This document shows positions 1 through 51,907 of a stretch of DNA of 64,000 nucleotides, piece after piece. How positions within the stretch are numbered: the stretch's first letter is position 1; the number at the start of each line of letters is the position of its first letter. The position numbers and the translations under genes are program-made. Below the pieces are notes generated by a model, which did not search any database, was not told the origin of the DNA, and worked only from the letters and a program-made list of their open reading frames with translations. Source of the stretch: Candidatus Aphodoplasma sp. (GTDB lineage: Bacteria > Bacillota > Clostridia > UBA1381 > UMGS1253); contig JAZNVH010000010.1 in NCBI GenBank assembly GCA_045592745.1, positions 92,783 to 156,782 of the forward strand, given 5' to 3'.

Positions 1-1289
1 TTTTCCTCTATTGCCTTAATGACAACTGCTTCAACGGCAGATGCGTCAAACTTTTTATCAAGACCTTGTTCTTTACAGTAAAGGGCAGGGTCAACGTCGT
101 TTTCAACTACTGCAATTAAGATTTTCTTGCCGGCATTACGGTTAACAGTGCCGTCATTTACCATTTTTATAATACTAAAGAGCTTTTCGGCACTGATTGT
201 TAATTCGTCTATCGTCTTGCCGTCTTTTCTCAAAACGCCAATACAGTCAGTCAAAATCCACGTTGCAGCATCTTTTGCCCCGCATCCCATATTAACAACA
301 TCATCAAGAAGCTTGCTTATCCTGTGGTTTGAAATAAGCATGTCAATTTCTTTTTCGGAAATGCCTGCCAAACGGTAATCCTCAACCTTTTCATCAAGAG
401 CGGCGGGTTTGTTTGCTTTGATTTTTTCAAGCCATTCGTCGTCTATGATTATCGGCATAAGGTTTGCGTCGGGGAAGTAGCGATAATCCGCTTCAGTTTC
501 CTTGTTACGCATAGCAAAGGTTTTTCCGCTGACATCATCAAAACGTCTTGTTTCCTGCACAAGCTCTTCTGTTTCAAATTCCAAAGCATCAATGTGGCGC
601 TGCGCTTCGTAGCGGATTGCACGCTCAATTGCTTCAAATGAGCTCATGTTCTTAATCTCTGTACGTACGCCAAATGTTTCGCTTCCTTCGGGGCGAACAG
701 AAATATTAACGTCGCAGCGCATTGCGCCTTCTTCACATTCTGAAATTCCGGCAGAGCGGAACATTGATTTTAATTTGTTTAAGTAGGTTACAACCTCTTC
801 TGCGCTTCTAAAATCGGGCTGAGTTACAATCTCGATTAGCGGAACGCTGGTACGGTTAAAGTCTACATAAGAATATTTGCCACCATGGACAAGTTTGCCT
901 GCATCCTCTTCCATATGAATCTGCTTAATGCGTATATCACGACTGCCTGCTGATGTTTTAAGTGTTACGCATCCGTTGGTGCAAATAGGATGATTAAGCT
1001 GTGTAATCTGATATGCACACGGAAGGTCAGGATAGTAGTAATTCTTTTTATCAAAGGTTGTGTATCTGTTTATTTCACAGTTAAGCATAAGACCTGCTGT
1101 AACAGCAAGCTCTACAACGCGCTTGTTCATTACAGGCAGCATTCCGGGCATACCGCTGCAGGCAGGGCATACGCAGTCATTAGGCTCGTTAGCGGAGCTG
1201 TGACCGCCACACGAACAGAATATTTTTGATTCGGTACTAAGCTCAACGTGAGTTTCAAGACCGATAACCAATTCGTAATTCATAATCAT
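1..1289 (-). CDS. gatB: Asp-tRNA(Asn)/Glu-tRNA(Gln) amidotransferase subunit B (partial, runs off left edge)
   Basis: Not in the ORF track; translated by hand from ATG at 1289, overlapping the gatA stop (ATGA). It reads MIMNYELVIGLETHVELSTESKIFCSC...CPAC...FDKKNYYYPDL...IHMEEDAG...PLIEIV...DYRYFP. The frame stays open to position 3 (429 codons). Confidence 0.96.
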   Translation of the reverse strand, partial: MIMNYELVIGLETHVELSTESKIFCSCGGHSSANEPNDCVCPACSGMPGMLPVMNKRVVELAVTAGLMLNCEINRYTTFDKKNYYYPDLPCAYQITQLNHPICTNGCVTLKTSAGSRDIRIKQIHMEEDAGKLVHGGKYSYVDFNRTSVPLIEIVTQPDFRSAEEVVTYLNKLKSMFRSAGISECEEGAMRCDVNISVRPEGSETFGVRTEIKNMSSFEAIERAIRYEAQRHIDALEFETEELVQETRRFDDVSGKTFAMRNKETEADYRYFPDANLMPIIIDDEWLEKIKANKPAALDEKVEDYRLAGISEKEIDMLISNHRISKLLDDVVNMGCGAKDAATWILTDCIGVLRKDGKTIDELTISAEKLFSIIKMVNDGTVNRNAGKKILIAVVENDVDPALYCKEQGLDKKFDASAVEAVVIKAIEE

Positions 1290-2464
1290 TCACCCTTCCT
1301 TTCGGCCGCGTCTGCAAAACCAAGAAGCAGAGGCTCGGAAAAATGCTTTCCAATAAGCTGGACACCACCACTAACCATTGCAGGCACGCCAATAAGGTTT
1401 GCCAAAGAGGTGAACACGCTCTCATCAAACACCTTGCCAAAGGCTTCGTGAATATCGTACGCTTCATAAGCTGTTTTACTCATAGCAGGAGTCAAAATAG
1501 CATCGTAATTTTTCATAAGCTCTTCAAATTTTTCTGCTATTACACGGCGTACTTTTAATGATTTATTATAGCATTCTTCGTAACGGTTTTTGGAAAGAAC
1601 ATCAGAGCCATACAAAATCACTGATTTTGTCAAAAAGTTAAAGCCTTCTGTTCTTGAATTTACATATAACTCGTCAATGTCTTTGTATTCTTTGGCGCGA
1701 TGACCAAATTTAACACCGTCATAACGGGAAATATTATTGCACGTTTCTGCTGTCATAAGAATCTGCCATGCCACGTTAACAGCATCAAAAATATCAAATG
1801 AGATTTCTTCTACAACAACACCATTCTCGCGTAGTGCGCCAGCAAAAGCGTTTATGCGTTCTTTTGTCTGCTCATCTGCTTTTTCGACGAGCTCTTTTAC
1901 AATGGCGACCTTTTTGCCCGAAACATTTTCCAAGCTATAGTCATAGCTTTCGTTTCTGAGGCTCGTTCCGTCTTTTTCGTCGTGTCCTGCAATAATCTGC
2001 ATAATCTCTTTAACACCTGATGCATTTTTCGCATATACACCGACTTGCTCACCCGAAGCAGCACACGAAATTACACCATAGCGTGAAACCGTGCCATAGG
2101 TGGGTTTTAAAAAGTCGATGCCAGATAATGCGGCGCTGCGTCTTGTAGCGCCATTCATATCTACGCCAAGAGCGGCTTTTACATCGCCATCTGCAACCGC
2201 CTGTGCGGCTGCGCCTTTTAATGAGCCTTCCTGATTTTCGTAGTATGAAAATTCACCAACAAGGTCAAGACCAAACTCGCCAACATGTGTCTTTCCGGCA
2301 ACTTTATATCCTTTGCTTTCAAGACGTGTTACTGCCTCTGCGCTAAAAAGCGGCTTGAAGCCTTCAAGTATTTTAGAGCCTGCACAGCTTTGAGCGTCTT
2401 TTACTAAAATTGTATCATCAACTGCGATGTTACCATCGCCTAATTTCGTTTTATAATAATTCAT
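1286..2464 (-). CDS. gatA: GatA-like amidase-signature protein, truncated and lacking the catalytic triad
   Basis: Amidase-signature scaffold (LKPTYGTVSRYG, NISRYDGVKFGHR, SLANLIGVPA) between aspS::gatC and gatB. Likely start is ATG 2464 behind GAGGTG (track start GTG 2473). About 392 aa versus about 480 for typical GatA. Confidence 0.9.
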   Translation of the reverse strand: MNYYKTKLGDGNIAVDDTILVKDAQSCAGSKILEGFKPLFSAEAVTRLESKGYKVAGKTHVGEFGLDLVGEFSYYENQEGSLKGAAAQAVADGDVKAALGVDMNGATRRSAALSGIDFLKPTYGTVSRYGVISCAASGEQVGVYAKNASGVKEIMQIIAGHDEKDGTSLRNESYDYSLENVSGKKVAIVKELVEKADEQTKERINAFAGALRENGVVVEEISFDIFDAVNVAWQILMTAETCNNISRYDGVKFGHRAKEYKDIDELYVNSRTEGFNFLTKSVILYGSDVLSKNRYEECYNKSLKVRRVIAEKFEELMKNYDAILTPAMSKTAYEAYDIHEAFGKVFDESVFTSLANLIGVPAMVSGGVQLIGKHFSEPLLLGFADAAERKGE

Positions 2465-2474
2465 CCTGCACACC

Positions 2475-4553
2475 TCACTTTACAAGTCTTGGCACCTGCC
2501 AGCTGTCTTCACTGCGCTCGGGAGCACCTTCTAAGAGGCTCTCACGCGTGAACGGCTGATGGCGGACATCTTCGCGCAGTACATTTGTCATAGGCATAAC
2601 ATGTACCATGGGTTCAACATTTTCTGTATCTATCGTAGAAAGAATTTTTTCTTTTTCGCTCATAGCGGCAAAAATTTTCTGAACCTTATTTTCTTCTTCG
2701 CCTGAAAGGGCGATCTGGTTTAGCTGCTGTGCATTAGAAAATGTCGAGCGCTTGCTCATAGATGATTTACCTGTGTTTGATGGGCCTGATGCACGCTGCG
2801 CGAGTGCGTTTGTATTTCCCAAAAGGTGAACATCTTCAAGCTGTTGATTTGATACAAAGCTTGGCGCACCTAAAAGAAGGTCCTGAGCGTTGCCGTTTAG
2901 AGGGAATGCAATAACGTCTAAAATCTTTTCTTCATCGGTTAACAGCATTACCATTCTGTCGATACCGGGCGCCATACCTGCATGAGGCGGAGCACCGTAT
3001 TGGAATGCTGTATAAAGAGCATTAAAACGCTTTTTAAGCTCTTCCTCTGGATAACCTGCAATTTCAAATGCTTTTTTCATGATGTCTATATCATGGTTAC
3101 GAACAGCGCCCGATGCAAGCTCTATGCCGTTACCAACAAGGTCATACTGATATGCCAGAATTTCGGTAGGGTCTTTTGTAAGAAGAGCATCCATACCGCC
3201 CTGGGGCATAGAAAATGGGTTGTGTGTAAAGATTATTTCGCCTGTATCCTCGTCTTCTTCGTACATCGGGAAGTCTACAACGAAGCAGAACTCGAATGCA
3301 TCTTCGTTAATCAAATCAAGCTGTTCTTTTTTAGCAAGCCATGTGCGTATAAGTCCTGCTTTTTTCTCGGTATCATTCTTTTTATCATCACAGATAAAGA
3401 ACAGTGTTTCGCCTTCTTTTACACCTGTTAATTCAATTATTTCTTCTTTTTGTGCGTCACTTAAGAACTTGGCGATAGGACCTGCAAATATGCCATCTTT
3501 TAAAGTGATATATCCAAGACCGCCAAGACCAACCTCAAGAGATGTTGCATATTTTAAAGAATCCTCAAAGAATTTTTTTGATTTGCCCTGACAGTTTGCC
3601 ACGATTCCGCGCACGGGCTTACCCTTAAAAGCGGGGAAGTCAACGCCAGAAAAGAAATCTGTCAAATCACAGATGATAAGTGGATTTCGAAGGTCAGGCT
3701 TATCAGAGCCGTAATACATCATCGCATCGGCATATGTTATGCGGCGAAACGGCTTTGGTGTAACCTTTTTATCGGAAAATGTTTTAAATGTATCATAGAT
3801 TAAATCTTCGCAAACATCCAAAACTTCTTCTTGCGTAGCAAACGCCATTTCAAAGTCGAGCTGATAAAACTCACCGGGAGAACGATCAGCGCGGGCATCT
3901 TCGTCACGGAAGCACGGAGCAACCTGAAAATATCTGTCAAAGCCCGACACCATCAAAAGCTGTTTAAACTGCTGCGGTGCCTGCGGAAGTGCGTAAAATT
4001 TGCCCGGATGCTTACGGCTTGGTACCAAAAAGTCTCTGGCGCCTTCCGGAGAAGAAGCAGTCAAAATCGGAGTCTGCATATCCAAAAAGCCTTTTTCCTC
4101 CATTTTGTTTCTCAAATGGCGGATAATCTTTGAGCGTTTTACCAAATTATCATGGTTTTTTGGATTACGCAAATCAAGATAGCGGTATTTTAAACGAAGC
4201 TCATCCTTGCTCAGTCTTGAAGTGCGCACATCAAAAGGCAGATTATTAAGACTTTTGCCTAAAATTTCAAGAGTGTCTGCTACAAGTTCTACATTACCTG
4301 TATCAAGCTTGTAGTTTACGGTTTCTTCGTCACGCTTGCTTACGATACCTGTAACAGAAATAACTGTTTCGCGGTTTACATCCTTTACAAGCTTGTCATC
4401 ATGGATGACCACCTGTGTTACGCCTGTGTAATCACGAAGGTCGATAAAAATAACACCACCGTGGTCACGCACAACGTCAACCCAACCGGCAAGTGAAACA
4501 GTTTTGCCGATGTGCTCATCACGTATGTCATTACAATATAGGGTTCTATACAT
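2475..4553 (-). CDS. aspS: Aspartyl-tRNA synthetase (non-discriminating type) fused to a C-terminal GatC-like domain
   Basis: AspRS motifs RDHGGVIFIDLRD, LPQAPQQFKQLLM, CFRDEDARADR.PGEFYQLD, GAPPHAGMAPGIDR. After about residue 585 comes a Ser/Gly/Asn linker, then a GatC-like tail (IDTENVEPMVHV..TNVLREDV...LLEGAPERSEDSWQVPRLVK). Confidence 0.95.
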   Translation of the reverse strand: MYRTLYCNDIRDEHIGKTVSLAGWVDVVRDHGGVIFIDLRDYTGVTQVVIHDDKLVKDVNRETVISVTGIVSKRDEETVNYKLDTGNVELVADTLEILGKSLNNLPFDVRTSRLSKDELRLKYRYLDLRNPKNHDNLVKRSKIIRHLRNKMEEKGFLDMQTPILTASSPEGARDFLVPSRKHPGKFYALPQAPQQFKQLLMVSGFDRYFQVAPCFRDEDARADRSPGEFYQLDFEMAFATQEEVLDVCEDLIYDTFKTFSDKKVTPKPFRRITYADAMMYYGSDKPDLRNPLIICDLTDFFSGVDFPAFKGKPVRGIVANCQGKSKKFFEDSLKYATSLEVGLGGLGYITLKDGIFAGPIAKFLSDAQKEEIIELTGVKEGETLFFICDDKKNDTEKKAGLIRTWLAKKEQLDLINEDAFEFCFVVDFPMYEEDEDTGEIIFTHNPFSMPQGGMDALLTKDPTEILAYQYDLVGNGIELASGAVRNHDIDIMKKAFEIAGYPEEELKKRFNALYTAFQYGAPPHAGMAPGIDRMVMLLTDEEKILDVIAFPLNGNAQDLLLGAPSFVSNQQLEDVHLLGNTNALAQRASGPSNTGKSSMSKRSTFSNAQQLNQIALSGEEENKVQKIFAAMSEKEKILSTIDTENVEPMVHVMPMTNVLREDVRHQPFTRESLLEGAPERSEDSWQVPRLVK

Positions 4554-4584: not shown

Positions 4585-4799
4585 AATAAAAGTCCCGAAA
4601 ATATACAAAAGTATATTTTCGGGACGAGTAAACTAACATTTAACCCGCGGTGCCACCCGCATTGATGCTAAAAGCATCCGCTTTTTATATGAAGCTGTAA
4701 ATAAACGGAGTGTTCCCAAACTTACTACTCATCTCAAATGCGCTTTCAGTCCATGACGCATTCTCCCTTTCAGACTTTCCACAAAAGCCGAGTCTCCGT
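4585..4799 (-). promoter_or_regulatory. T-box riboswitch upstream of aspS::gatC-gatA-gatB, probable Asn (AAC) specifier
   Basis: On the - strand: T-box GCGGGTGGCACCGCG (4660-4646), stem III GATGCT/AGCATC, and terminator GTCCCGAAAATATAC-TTTT-GTATATTTTCGGGAC plus a U-tract. Apical AGGGAG/ACTGAAAG elements and basal stem ACGGAG/CTCCGT are present, with AAC-A at 4714-4711. The UGGC bulge implies a G73 tRNA (Asn/Asp compatible). Confidence 0.88.
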
Positions 4800-4804
4800 A
4801 AGTT

Positions 4805-4833
4805 ATTATAGCAAAAAATGTTTTTATTGTCAA
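4805..4833 (-). promoter_or_regulatory. SigA-type promoter for the T-box/aspS operon
   Basis: Perfect TTGACA-17 nt-TATAAT on the - strand just upstream of the T-box leader. Confidence 0.85.
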
Positions 4834-4900
4834 CATTATTTTGCCTGATTTTTTTGATATTATTAAAGTTGTTTTATTGGGACATTTTTGTATTTTAACC

Positions 4901-30021: not shown

Positions 30022-30299
30022 ATAAACGCAGTGATGCGGAATAGTAGGCAAAATACTTTCGCCAAAAGAGAGATGCCGGTTGGTGCAAGGCATTGGGAAA
30101 GATTTGCCGAACTCACCGCGGAGCGGCTGCCGTGAAATGTTTGGAGAGTAGGGGCAGACGGGAACTCCCGTAACAGAGTAAAGATGTGTTGGCATCTTGA
30201 GGGCATCCTTTGTGGATGAAGAAGAGTGGTACCGCGGAAGCAAAAAAGGATTTTACGCTTTCGTCTCTTTGAATAAACGAAGAGACGAAAGCTTTTTTT
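30022..30299 (+). promoter_or_regulatory. Leucine T-box riboswitch (specifier CUC)
   Basis: Stem I with AGUA/GAA loop E, AGAGAG bulge, GGTGCAAG loop and GAA-CTC-A at 30109-30115. T-box AGAGTGGTACCGCG at 30223-30236. Terminator GCTTTCGTCTCT/AGAGACGAAAGC plus T7 (30257-30299). The UGGU bulge matches the A73 discriminator of tRNA-Leu. Confidence 0.95.
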
Positions 30300-30353
30300 G
30301 TAAATTGAAAAAGCTTTGGGAAATGAGCTTTGAAAGGGAAGGGGTTTTATCCA

Positions 30354-31742
30354 ATGAGAAAAATCAACGTATCGGACATTACATTAAAAAAACTGGCACA
30401 AACAAGAGAGGTTGCACTGCTATTTCGTGAAAAGACAGCGATTGCTGCGTGCGCAGACGCTCTCGGCGTAGATGCTATTGAACTTGCGGCAATTAAAAAT
30501 TTGCGTGAAGATACTATCGTTTATAAAACGATTGCAAAAAATATTCAAAAAAGTATTGTTGCAATTCCGGTTGGTTTTTCTTTTGATGACGTGGCAAATG
30601 CGTGGGAATGTGTAAAGGAAGCCGCAAAACCGAGACTGCAGGTAGAAGTGCCCACATCAACAGTTCAGATGGAGTATATGTATCATCTTAAAGCAGACAA
30701 AATGATAGCAAAAATCGCCGAGCTTGTTACAGAAGCGAAAAAGCTTTGTGATGATGTAGAGCTTGTTGCAACTGATGCTACACGTGCTGATGAAGAGTTT
30801 TTGATTGAAGCTGCAAAGACAGCCGAACAAAATGGCGCAAAGATTATTACAATCTGTGACGATGCGGGTGTGGCTTTGCCTGAGGAAATTGCAGAGCTTG
30901 TTTCTAAAGTAAAGCAGGCTGTAAATGCAGATGTTTATGTGCAGGTATCAGACAGTATCGGTATGGCAGTATCGGCGGCGGTATCTGCAATCGGAGCGGG
31001 CGCAGATGGACTAAAATGTGCAATGGCAGGAGAAGATTCGCTTTCTATGGGCGCTTTGGCAAAAATGGTTTCAGCACGCGGAGATGCGATTGGCGCTTCG
31101 GTAGCTTTGGAGAATACAAAAATTCACGCAAGTATCGAGGATATGCTTTCTAAAATCAATCATGCAGGATATGAAAGTGCAGATGACGTTAGCGAGAAAA
31201 AGAAGATTTTGCTTGATGAGGATAGTACACTTTCTGATGTGGCATATGCGGCAAATGTGCTTGGTTATGATTTGTCCGACGAGGATAATGGAAAGGTTTA
31301 TAAGGCACTTATGCAGGTTTGTGAGAAGAAAGGCTCTGTCGGAGTAAAAGAATTTGAAGCACTTATTGCAAGCAGTGCAATGCAGGCACCGTCAACATAT
31401 CATTTTGAAAGCTATTCGACAAGTTGTGGTAATTTAACAAGTGCAATGTCACAGGTAACGCTAAGATGCGGTGATGAAATTCTTTGCGGTGTAAGCACGG
31501 GCGACGGTCCGATTGATTCGGTATTTCGTGCAATAGAGCAAAGCATAGGATATCATTATGAGCTTGACGATTTCCAGATTCAGTCGGTAACAGATGGCAA
31601 GGAAGCGCTTGGCTCTGCCTTGGTAAAGCTTCGCGTAGGCGGCAAGCTCTATTCAGGTAACGGCAGCTCTACTGATATTGTTGCAGCAAGTATAAGAGCA
31701 TACATAAATGCGCTTAACAAGATTGTGTTTGAGGAGGCGTAA
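30354..31742 (+). CDS. LeuA (2-isopropylmalate synthase)-like pseudoenzyme with intact C-terminal regulatory domain
   Basis: Colinear with LeuA (AAKPRLQV, LCDDVEL..TDATR, GDGPIDSVF.AI, SGNGSSTDIVAASIRAYINALNK), but LRDGEQ reads LKKLAQ and HCHND reads QVSDS. Start ATG 30354 behind GAAGGGG. Confidence 0.88.
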   Translation: MRKINVSDITLKKLAQTREVALLFREKTAIAACADALGVDAIELAAIKNLREDTIVYKTIAKNIQKSIVAIPVGFSFDDVANAWECVKEAAKPRLQVEVPTSTVQMEYMYHLKADKMIAKIAELVTEAKKLCDDVELVATDATRADEEFLIEAAKTAEQNGAKIITICDDAGVALPEEIAELVSKVKQAVNADVYVQVSDSIGMAVSAAVSAIGAGADGLKCAMAGEDSLSMGALAKMVSARGDAIGASVALENTKIHASIEDMLSKINHAGYESADDVSEKKKILLDEDSTLSDVAYAANVLGYDLSDEDNGKVYKALMQVCEKKGSVGVKEFEALIASSAMQAPSTYHFESYSTSCGNLTSAMSQVTLRCGDEILCGVSTGDGPIDSVFRAIEQSIGYHYELDDFQIQSVTDGKEALGSALVKLRVGGKLYSGNGSSTDIVAASIRAYINALNKIVFEEA

Positions 31743-49576: not shown

Positions 49577-51907
49577 TTACACGCCAATAGTATTTTTAAC
49601 GTTTTCTTCGCTAAATGATGCATCTGTAAATTCATTCATAAATGCCTCAAATGAGCCTGATTCATTTTTATCGGAGCAGCGAACAACCCATGCGATTGTA
49701 TCACCATAAGCACGATAATCGCAGTCCATTACTGCGTCATTATTGTTAAGCTCGAGTGTTTTTGAACACCATACGCCCATATAAGAGTTGTTAACGCGGG
49801 CAAACATAAAGCCATCACGCTTTATTTCTTCATCCATTGCAAATGAAGGCCAGTAAATATGGGTAAGCTTTGTCGGATGCTCGTCGGGGATATTATAGTA
49901 GCAGTAAAGCGTATTGTCATCTTGCTTTAGTGCAGGAAATACGCCATTTCCATACCAATAATCAGGACGTATACCGCCAAAGTCTTTTTCTGTGCCCGGA
50001 TGATTTACGAATGTATAACAGCGGTTTGAAAGAGCCGCATACCAAAGATGCTGCTGATAGCCATATTTGCCGGGAACAAACAAAGACGTTCCGTGAAACC
50101 ACTCGTTCATGATCTTTGTCTTATAATATTCTGTATCTGTATATTTTTCTTCAGGGAGTGGCGTGCGTCTTGGAGAAGCAACCGATGTAAGCATATAGTT
50201 TTTCGTTTTTTTTGTAGTAATGCTTGCACGTCCCGAATCAAATGTAACATTGGCATTATTGCGCATAAGTTCCGTCAAATCATCAGGCATTTTATATGAG
50301 CTGTAATAGAAGTATATAAGCCAACCACTGTATGCTTGGGCGCAGTTTTCGTCGAGCAGATACAAAAGACTTTGCAGTCCTGACTCGTATGGAGTGAGCG
50401 AGCTTCTGTATATTCTTCCCATAGGAGCCATATGTATACCGTCAAAGCATTGAAGTGCTGTTTCACGAAGAATTCGGTCAAGAGCGTTTTTTGCGCGGGA
50501 CTTGATAACTTCGTTTGTTGAAAAATCATAAAGGACAAGAAGCGGAGCAGTTGTAACAAGCAGATATCCGCCTGCCAAAAATTCTTCAAAGCCCTCGTGC
50601 TCAATTACATCAAACCACTCGTTTATACGGGCTATGCCTTTTTTATACTGGTCTATGCCGCGTTTGCCTGAATGACGGAAAAACTCCTCGGGCCATATAC
50701 TTCCTGCGAGCATCTGGCAAACAAAGAATGTGAGCGCGTGATTTTCGCTCCAAAAGCACATTGCATCTGCACCTTCCTCGTCCATCCAGTATCTAAAGTC
50801 AAGAGCGGCATCGTGTATCTTCTTTTTGTATTCATCACTTATTGGTAAAAGCTTGTATATGTAAAGAAGACTCATAAGTGCAAAGTCAGAACAATCTCTA
50901 CAAGTGCGTACAAAGTCAAGAGGCATATCAAAATGCGCATAATCTTTTTCGCAGATAGACTGTTTTATGTAGTAACTGGCAAGAAATTTGAAAGTATCTA
51001 AATAAGAGTGAGCTTTTGTGTCAGCTATATTTTTCAATATTGAATCTGCTTTATCTTTCTTTGATTCAAATTTATTAAACACAAGCTTTTCATTCTGAAG
51101 AATATCAAATCGGCGCATAAACTTTTGTGCGCATACTTCAAACGATACTTGGATATTTCTTTCTCTGTTTATATCATAGGTGTTGCCTTCGCTCCATACG
51201 CTCTCATTTTCTCCAAGCTTAACTGTTACAGGTAATGGCGGTTGTGTTTTTGAAATAAGCTTTGCATCATCACAACGCAAATCACAAAGCCAGTTTTCAG
51301 CGTCTTTAAGCTTTGCAAGAGTATCTTCCTTGACAGGAAGAGTTACACATATACCGTCTGTATCAAAAAGCTGAAGTGAGAACATATTTCTGGTGTCGCG
51401 TACACCAAAGTTCTGGAGGCATACAAATATATCATTAACGCCTTTCTTTAGGTCTAATGTTATGTCAAGATAGTTTATCGGTTTATATACGGGGTCTTTA
51501 ATGTTTGCACAGTGGACACCGTTTAGCCACATATCAACAGTACAGTATGACCAGATTCGAGCGCGAACAGTTTTTGCTTTGTCACTTACAAGCTGAGTTA
51601 GTGCATGAATATTAACACTCGTAAGAGTGAAGTAGAAGGTTGAGAAATCTATGTATGTATTACGGTTTTTTGCATAAAATTTCCACACCGCACCAAGTGA
51701 GCTTTCTTCGCCGAGAGTGCCCCATGCGGGTACTTTTTCCATAGGCTTTGCGAAAATTTTTCGCATATCAGCCTCGAATTTTAGCTGATTTTTATCTGTA
51801 TGGGGTGCTACAAAAGGCTCAGTAACAGCCTCAGTTGTAAGATAGTTTAGAACATATCCCTCTTTTGAAAGTGAAAAACATACTTTTGAATCAGTCAACA
51901 TAAACAC
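49577..51907 (-). CDS. 776-aa cytoplasmic protein of unknown function, possibly carbohydrate lyase-like
   Basis: Long intact ORF with no signal peptide. Beta-rich N-terminus, helical core with FRYWMDE/FWSENH and a beta-rich C-terminus (YGYQQHLW). The fold assignment is inference. Confidence 0.6.
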   Translation of the reverse strand: MFMLTDSKVCFSLSKEGYVLNYLTTEAVTEPFVAPHTDKNQLKFEADMRKIFAKPMEKVPAWGTLGEESSLGAVWKFYAKNRNTYIDFSTFYFTLTSVNIHALTQLVSDKAKTVRARIWSYCTVDMWLNGVHCANIKDPVYKPINYLDITLDLKKGVNDIFVCLQNFGVRDTRNMFSLQLFDTDGICVTLPVKEDTLAKLKDAENWLCDLRCDDAKLISKTQPPLPVTVKLGENESVWSEGNTYDINRERNIQVSFEVCAQKFMRRFDILQNEKLVFNKFESKKDKADSILKNIADTKAHSYLDTFKFLASYYIKQSICEKDYAHFDMPLDFVRTCRDCSDFALMSLLYIYKLLPISDEYKKKIHDAALDFRYWMDEEGADAMCFWSENHALTFFVCQMLAGSIWPEEFFRHSGKRGIDQYKKGIARINEWFDVIEHEGFEEFLAGGYLLVTTAPLLVLYDFSTNEVIKSRAKNALDRILRETALQCFDGIHMAPMGRIYRSSLTPYESGLQSLLYLLDENCAQAYSGWLIYFYYSSYKMPDDLTELMRNNANVTFDSGRASITTKKTKNYMLTSVASPRRTPLPEEKYTDTEYYKTKIMNEWFHGTSLFVPGKYGYQQHLWYAALSNRCYTFVNHPGTEKDFGGIRPDYWYGNGVFPALKQDDNTLYCYYNIPDEHPTKLTHIYWPSFAMDEEIKRDGFMFARVNNSYMGVWCSKTLELNNNDAVMDCDYRAYGDTIAWVVRCSDKNESGSFEAFMNEFTDASFSEENVKNTIGV

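Follow-up and report, generated by a model that had tools for sequence, protein, structure and literature searches.

Can the subunit that supplies an amidotransferase with its nitrogen be kept by bacteria after its own chemistry has been lost? This question is raised by a 64,000-nucleotide stretch of contig JAZNVH010000010.1 from Candidatus Aphodoplasma sp. (hereafter the window), at one edge of which lies a minus-strand operon related to the gatCAB genes of tRNA-dependent amidation. Following a T-box-like leader, the operon encodes an aspartyl-tRNA synthetase (AspRS) fused to GatC, a homologue of the glutaminase subunit GatA (here pGatA) and a GatB protein (here GatB2). GatCAB is understood as defined by the GatA glutaminase and the gated tunnel leading from it to GatB. 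An initial annotation of the window had claimed that all three catalytic residues of the GatA homologue are replaced in an N-terminally shortened, uninterrupted frame, and had proposed a structurally selected, non-catalytic subunit. Here, this proposal was followed up by alignment, comparison of related loci, estimates of selection and structure prediction, and the possible nitrogen sources of the encoded system are weighed.

Results

Loss of the active site in pGatA

Active-site positions were mapped by alignment to the GatA chains of A. aeolicus (3h0l_A) and S. aureus (2df4_A), and the replacement of all three catalytic residues was borne out by both. The consensus IAVKDN reads IAVDDT in pGatA and places S. 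aureus K79 on D16 (codon 2419-2417). PGGSSGGS reads EGSLKGAA, and the cis-serine S154 falls on L82 (codon 2219-2221) because the stretch between both serine motifs is ungapped. Finally, GSDTGGSIRQPA reads GVDMNGATRRSA, with the nucleophile S178 on A106 (codon 2149-2147). The codons first assigned to the lysine and nucleophile positions were correct. Residue 13 of pGatA pairs with residue 69 of the A. aeolicus and residue 76 of the S. aureus protein, so that about 56-63 N-terminal residues are absent, close to the 60 originally estimated, and a further nine residues are deleted directly ahead of the GGSS motif. A mis-called start hiding a longer N-terminus was considered and rejected, since the stop of the preceding gene at 2475 leaves no room for it. 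The frame of 392 amino acids begins with an ATG preceded by GAGGTG and is free of frameshifts, and the downstream GatA motifs KPTYG.VSRYG, N.SRYDG..FGHR and LYGS..LS are present, both as the initial annotation had it. In profile searches, pGatA matches Pfam Amidase (E 1.2e-55) and reaches 273.2 bits against the NCBIfam gatA model TIGR00132, under the cut-off of 481.1.

Conservation of these changes was assessed in 120 pGatA homologues and the query (75-88% identical, 391-394 amino acids). D16 is found in 121/121 sequences, as is leucine or isoleucine at position 82. Position 106 varies freely between serine (67), alanine (40), threonine (13) and phenylalanine (1), position 81 beside the cis-serine column is serine in only 7 of the 121, and position 107 also varies. 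The drift at position 106 and the variability of 81 and 107 thus leave pGatA with no conserved replacement nucleophile, and no conserved serine, threonine or cysteine that might rebuild the triad was found in or beside the motifs of these 121 sequences.

The changes reach beyond the triad. When 68 canonical GatA representatives were compared with the dead forms column by column, S. aureus Y309, R358 and D425, which we take from the structure to be the glutamine-binding residues, were 96-97% conserved in the canonical set; in pGatA they correspond to W233, V282 and S349, all invariant in its family. Columns conserved at 96-100% are altered at T175 (M103 in pGatA) and at two glycines (N at query position 104, F at 118), and the replacements at all these canonical columns are near-invariant within the family. 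These data support a predicted loss of the glutaminase site that includes the glutamine pocket, and pGatA is expected to be inactive as a glutaminase. The former active-site motifs are themselves invariant and now read DD...VDMNG..RR. This invariance, and the serine at position 106 in more than half of the sequences, would fit a pGatA that is still a hydrolase by means of other residues. Given that the lysine and cis-serine are replaced throughout, that the glutamine-pocket residues are replaced as well and that no nucleophile is conserved, such a hydrolase, like a decaying pseudogene, is considered very improbable.

Distribution, selection and fold

When a single genome was scanned for each species, relatives of pGatA were found in at least 154 species-level genomes. 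The best 80 of the 154 relatives were inspected as loci, and all are gut metagenome-assembled genomes (MAGs). Their hosts include goat, sheep, buffalo, deer and cattle, and the MAGs bear the labels Oscillospiraceae, Acutalibacteraceae, Congzhengia, Fumia or, loosely, Lachnospiraceae. The order aspS::gatC, pGatA, gatB2 recurs in all 81 loci where the contig reaches, and the fusion is present in every such locus (Table 1). Identity is 83-97% for aspS::gatC, 72-88% for pGatA and 78-96% for gatB. Ratios of nonsynonymous to synonymous substitution rates (dN/dS) were estimated by the Nei-Gojobori method from the closest pairs only, synonymous divergence being saturated for most pairs. In the unsaturated pairs the ratio was 0.05-0.13 for pGatA, 0.03-0.06 for the fusion and 0.01-0.04 for GatB. 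The AlphaFold model of pGatA is confident (mean predicted local distance difference test 94.3, predicted template modelling score 0.93), and its top Foldseek matches are solved GatA chains, with template modelling (TM) scores of 0.92-0.93 (query-normalised) and root-mean-square deviations of 2.1-2.5 Å.

A decaying or frameshifted pseudogene is excluded by dN/dS near 0.1, the intact frames in 81 loci and the confident fold. A GatA-mimic toxin of the Tse8 type was also ruled out, because in every genome the pGatA gene belongs to the same operon as gatB and aspS::gatC. By its sequence, pGatA is best described as a pseudoenzyme, an enzyme homologue without catalytic residues that is under purifying selection. 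The structurally selected, non-catalytic subunit of the initial annotation is supported by the dN/dS values, the conserved operon, the fold model and the apparent loss of the glutamine pocket.

Table 1. Features of the operon and its leader in the 64,000-nucleotide window.
Feature	Position	Strand	Basis
gatB2, first 427 amino acids, cut at the window edge (472 amino acids in relatives)	1..1283	-	Pfam, NCBIfam
Dead GatA (pGatA), 392 amino acids, stop codon included	1286..2464	-	Pfam, NCBIfam, alignments
aspS::gatC fusion, 692 amino acids	2475..4553	-	Pfam tRNA_anti-codon, tRNA-synt_2, GAD, GatC; NCBIfam
GatC domain, fusion residues 604-691 (C-terminus)	2481..2744	-	Pfam, NCBIfam
Operon leader region	4592..4842	-	Promoter, T-box-like RNA, terminator

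Other dead GatA proteins in Clostridia

Many GatA-like proteins without the triad were found among 1.8 billion representative sequences. Some are N-terminally truncated (about 360-420 amino acids) and others full length (about 450-480), and in most of them aspartate or glutamate replaces the lysine. In a rough neighbour-joining tree, a single large group separate from the canonical proteins holds most dead GatAs, and further ones are scattered inside the canonical group. From this scatter it follows that the site was lost more than once, and dead GatAs thus appear to have arisen repeatedly in Clostridia. P0253, P0199 and P0265 are full-length proteins inside the canonical group, in which the triad positions are all alanine or methionine in an otherwise canonical context (for example GGASGGS, GTDAGGAVRQPA); they may represent further independent losses.

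The gene neighbourhoods of the dead forms vary. P0123 and P0133 belong to operons of aspS, gatC, the dead gatA and gatB in which GatC is unfused, and P0173 from Peptococcaceae to a gatC-gatA-gatB set. P0279 is encoded by the first gatA of a tandem array, gatC-gatA-gatB-gatC-gatA-gatB (locus L094, 6681-13247), the second GatA of which is canonical. In this first GatA the lysine has become aspartate and a serine alanine, and the glutamine-pocket residues are still kept, which suggests that its predicted glutaminase loss is younger.

The fused synthetase and the operon leader

The fusion begins with an anticodon-binding OB domain, the class II core and a GAD domain, which are joined to GatC by a linker of about 25-40 amino acids. 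Its synthetase part is of the bacterial type (NF001750, aspartate-tRNA ligase, 740 bits), and its GatC part scores 53.1 bits against TIGR00135, above the cut-off of 47.1. The domain order, AspRS followed by GatC, is that of the bifunctional AspRS/GatC model NF009460. The score of 454.3 bits against this model does not reach its cut-off of 1379, and the fusion in the window therefore represents a different lineage. The gatB2 gene overlaps or abuts the stop codon of pGatA.

The operon is preceded by a promoter of perfect sigma-70 consensus, TTGACA-17-TATAAT (4833-4805, minus strand), a T-box-like RNA (4842-4617, minus strand) containing GGGUGGCACCGCG and an intrinsic terminator of 15 base pairs (4625-4592, minus strand). 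Promoter, T-box sequence and terminator are kept in 66 of 67 related leaders. Stem I is atypical, because the 5' half of the Rfam Stem I coincides with the promoter. The leader RNA seems to begin at the distal-platform hairpin, an apparently unusual architecture for Stem I. The terminal loop of a hairpin supported by covariation presents GACUG without variation, except in locus L031, where the triplet reads GGC.

In the sister locus L082, which also encodes a dead GatA, the leader is a canonical T-box (124.5 bits) with the specifier loop GAA-A-AAC-A, which presents an asparagine codon; the expression of this operon is therefore expected to answer to uncharged tRNA(Asn). The T-box of a further sister locus, L083, probably reads AAC too. 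Of the indirect evidence that such machines still supply Asn-tRNA(Asn), the strongest is this dead-GatA operon with its predicted induction by uncharged tRNA(Asn).

A canonical amidotransferase in the same genomes

A search of the DNA of the loci with a canonical GatA (tblastn) showed that L015 has a second gatA-gatB pair, on the same contig as the pGatA operon and 7 kb away from it. The second GatA has KDN, GGSSGGS and GSDTGGSIRQPA intact and scores 648 bits against TIGR00132. Close homologues of it are 74-90% identical, a family about as deep as that of pGatA, and their neighbourhood is conserved as gatC-gatA-gatB-x-mnmE-murJ. In a second genome, MAG JAFQAZ01, the pGatA operon is on contig 24 and a canonical gatCAB with one of these homologues on contig 11, the two contigs sharing a whole-genome-shotgun prefix. 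In two genomes of the family pGatA is therefore the GatA of a second amidotransferase beside canonical gatCAB. Between L015 and JAFQAZ01, identity is 81% for pGatA and 78% for canonical GatA, 91% for GatB2 and 77% for canonical GatB; the dead-GatA machine is thus the better conserved of the two amidotransferases. Matches to a second class II synthetase in L024 and L051 were considered as candidate AsnRS and rejected, as they are LysRS.

An asparaginase-like gene downstream of gatB2

A gene for a type I asparaginase/GatD-like protein of 330-365 amino acids directly follows gatB2 on the same strand, at a median distance of 214 nucleotides, in about 28 of the 81 loci. The loci are L020, L021, L023-L026, L028, L030, L033, L037, L043, L044, L047, L054, L056, L058, L059, L063, L065-L068, L073, L077, L078, L080 and L081; in L040 the gene is on the opposite strand, and L074 holds remnants. 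In loci with this gene pGatA is 72-76% identical to that of the window. The protein matches Pfam Asparaginase, and both the type I asparaginase and the GatD models of NCBIfam below their cut-offs. An AlaX-type editing protein (tRNA_SAD and DHHA1 domains; AlaXM match below cut-off) is encoded after the asparaginase-like gene in 16 loci, for example L044 (5917-7071, plus strand).

One possibility is that the asparaginase-like protein provides ammonia in the manner of GatD within GatDE; another is that it simply makes aspartate from asparagine. On the first view, ammonia would come from an amidohydrolase docked on the complex, an asparaginase/GatD-like protein, and pGatA would be its adaptor or conduit. 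The best PDB sequence matches of the protein are indeed archaeal GatD chains (1zq1_A, 2d6f_A), its two threonine motifs GGTIC and HGTDT are kept, and an asparaginase with GatD as its best NCBIfam match is found 5 kb upstream of the tandem dead and live operons of L094, on the other strand. However, the gene is absent beside the operon in the nearest relatives, L001-L019, and no match was found in the 64-kb window, which ends inside gatB2 and so excludes its 3' neighbour. The protein is without the GatD N-terminal domain, and the position of the catalytic lysine seems to be a conserved glutamine, as judged by pairwise alignment only. Under a GAC-type leader the asparaginase could just supply aspartate, and pGatA would itself sit on the face of GatB meant for a glutaminase. 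A docked amidohydrolase is regarded as an unlikely source of the ammonia.

Co-variation of GatB2 with the dead GatA

GatB2 scores 513 bits against NF004012 and 396 bits against A. aeolicus GatB, and the motifs IGLETH, HMEEDAGK, PLIEIVT and RCDVNIS are intact, so that the subunit looks catalytically active. Its DLPK motif reads DLPC (C89; window 1017-1019, minus strand). To place this change, GatB of 74 family members, of L082, L083 and L093 and the first GatB of L094 were compared with the partners of live GatAs. The lysine of DLPK(G/A)YQISQ, presumably the one probed in the H. pylori tunnel studies, is kept in 6 canonical partners, as it is in five GatBs from bacterial PDB entries, those whose alignments were inspected. 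In the five lineages of dead-GatA partners the position is occupied by cysteine (the family) and by threonine, threonine and alanine across L082, L083, L093 and L094, and these partners also share T36 to D/E, S94 to T and Q230 to H relative to the partners of live GatAs.

These comparisons bear on two further explanations. In one, pGatA would be a regulatory or assembly decoy, with GatB2 served by the canonical GatA or with pGatA and GatB2 titrating components, and glutamine would still be needed. The coexistence of canonical gatCAB in L015 and JAFQAZ01 and the tandem operons of L094 would allow such an arrangement. It is at odds with the adjacent or overlapping pGatA and GatB2 genes, in one operon at every locus, with an identity of only 43% between GatB2 and canonical GatB in L015 and with the stronger conservation of pGatA than of canonical GatA between the matched genomes. 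The absence of the DLPK lysine from the partners of dead GatAs also argues for a dedicated pair, and a decoy is judged improbable. In the other explanation, the complex would no longer amidate and would sequester or proofread Asp-tRNA(Asn), modulate AspRS or carry out other chemistry on the phosphorylated intermediate. Loss of both the glutaminase and the GatB2 tunnel lysine, the availability of canonical GatCAB and the AlaX-like gene downstream in 16 loci are consistent with this, but the intact catalytic motifs and high conservation of GatB2 are not what would be expected, and the asparagine specifier of the sister T-box fits a supply of Asn-tRNA(Asn). We consider a non-amidating complex to be as improbable as a decoy.

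Other features of the window

The remaining window is ordinary Clostridia chromosome, with genes for ValRS, PolC and RNase J, rhamnose genes and ABC transporters; no tRNA gene was found within its 64 kb. A full-score T-box (131.5 bits; 30022-30271, plus strand) lies ahead of a 2-isopropylmalate-synthase-like gene (470 amino acids, 30330-31742) that scores under the equivalog cut-offs and is followed by a gene for an 819-amino-acid protein with an acyl-CoA ligase as its C-terminal 540 residues. An open reading frame of 776 amino acids (49577-51907, minus strand) has neither a Pfam nor an NCBIfam match.

Discussion

A glutamine-splitting subunit without its active site implies that the second amidotransferase needs another nitrogen source, probably free ammonia. 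The explanation that we favour, with a probability of roughly 0.55, is a second, dedicated Asp-tRNA(Asn) amidotransferase in the form of a covalently tethered transamidosome, in which the GatA body serves as scaffold and free ammonia as donor. The three proteins of the operon would form one complex around a non-discriminating AspRS. This enzyme would bear GatC as its C-terminal domain, and GatC would clamp the GatA-like subunit to GatB2. No longer binding or hydrolysing glutamine, pGatA would be kept as the structural partner for the assembly of GatB and GatC, and because the old active-site motifs are still invariant it may also form a remodelled entry for ammonium. GatB2 would phosphorylate the tRNA(Asn)-bound aspartate, and free NH3/NH4+, plentiful in caecum, colon and rumen, would take the place of glutamine-derived ammonia in its amidation. 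Through the T-box-like leader, the operon would be induced by the uncharged form of the relevant tRNA, and the separate canonical GatCAB would handle the glutamine-dependent reactions.

According to published work, NH4Cl can serve amidotransferases as donor in vitro once the glutaminase is bypassed, and NH4Cl-dependent activity is higher in a yeast GatFAB variant whose glutaminase site is destabilised than in the full-length enzyme (PMC4027206). It is on the strength of such use of NH4Cl with a bypassed or weakened GatA site that an ammonia-dependent, tethered Asn-transamidosome is proposed. The yeast variants, N-terminal domain deletions, resemble the system described here in that free ammonia would bypass the glutaminase in transamidation, but they are engineered, whereas the window represents a natural lineage with a lost site. 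A review knows a glutamine-independent route to Asn-tRNA(Asn) only via AsnA plus AsnRS (PMC2330236).

Several observations weigh against the ammonia-dependent transamidosome. Use of free ammonia in vitro required 20 mM NH4Cl (PMC4027206). The locus was found in no RNA sequencing run. The asparaginase-like gene in about 28 of 81 loci points to a protein-bound ammonia source in part of the family, and the loss of the DLPK lysine in GatB could mean that the inter-subunit tunnel was abandoned rather than re-used. The T-box match in the window is low (47.1 bits, E 3.8e-9; Rfam gathering score 93), and the only invariant loop triplet in the leaders of the window family is GAC, an aspartate codon, AAC not being found in them. 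One may speculate that GAC pairs with the tRNA(Asn) anticodon GUU by way of one G-U pair. Lastly, because canonical GatCAB coexists, the dead complex need not be an amidotransferase at all.

With canonical GatCAB (S. aureus 2DF4, A. aeolicus 3H0L), the system in the window shares the GatA fold and the set of gatC, gatA and gatB genes, and its GatB is intact. It differs in that pGatA has neither the triad nor the presumed glutamine pocket, some 60 N-terminal residues or the nine-residue loop, and falls below the TIGR00132 cut-off, that GatC is fused to AspRS and that GatB has lost the DLPK lysine. In the known Asn-transamidosomes of T. thermophilus (3KFU) and P. aeruginosa (4WJ3), the GatA chains of which are among the best fold matches of the pGatA model, AspRS and GatCAB also cooperate on tRNA(Asn). 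Their partners associate non-covalently, whereas the window encodes AspRS and GatC as a single polypeptide, and the glutaminase site of its GatA appears dead. Archaeal GatDE likewise combines a GatB-type kinase/amidase with an asparaginase-family subunit, and a GatD-like gene follows gatB2 in about one third of the relatives. The window system, unlike GatDE, retains a GatA-like subunit and GatC, and the asparaginase-like protein of its relatives has no GatD N-terminal domain and is missing beside the operon of the nearest ones. Mitochondrial carbamoyl-phosphate synthetase I, in which a degenerate glutaminase module is kept as structure and NH3 is the substrate, offers an analogy only, as fold and pathway are unrelated.

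The nearest described case seems to be the extra aspS-gatCAB operon of C. acetobutylicum, which stands under a tRNA(Asn) T-box beside the housekeeping set (Saad 2012, as cited in PMC4206432). As far as that summary goes, the two systems have in common an additional AspRS and GatCAB, occurrence in Clostridia and a T-box or T-box-like leader, with the AAC specifier of sister locus L082 as a further likeness; an AspRS-GatC fusion is not reported in it, and the leader in the window is atypical with its GAC loop. We know of no report of an inactive extra GatA in C. acetobutylicum. A search of the available literature on inactive, pseudo- or non-catalytic GatA and on AspRS-GatC fusions found nothing relevant.

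In its furthest form the hypothesis would be that of a natural, glutamine-independent machine of covalent AspRS-GatC, dead GatA and GatB that makes Asn-tRNA(Asn) directly from free ammonium through an acidic entry formed by D16, D17 and D102 of the remodelled old GatA site and that has evolved repeatedly in gut Clostridia. This wider claim is tentative, and we place it somewhat below even odds.

A large and conserved natural family, present in at least 154 gut species, keeps the body of GatA without its chemistry, and GatB has changed in step. Proteins of the pGatA type currently go under labels such as 'hypothetical' and 'amidase family', or even under 'GatA', and pathway predictions for gut MAGs may therefore misjudge the nitrogen donor. 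The named genera Congzhengia and Fumia are among the labels of related MAGs, which makes experiments feasible. If free ammonia is indeed the donor, tRNA-dependent asparagine synthesis can be uncoupled from glutamine, the presence of two amidotransferases in some Clostridia would be explained, and in this family the entry and passage of ammonia in amidotransferases could be studied in a naturally occurring system. The dead-GatA machine would then be the ammonia-using counterpart of GatCAB, as AsnA relates to AsnB.

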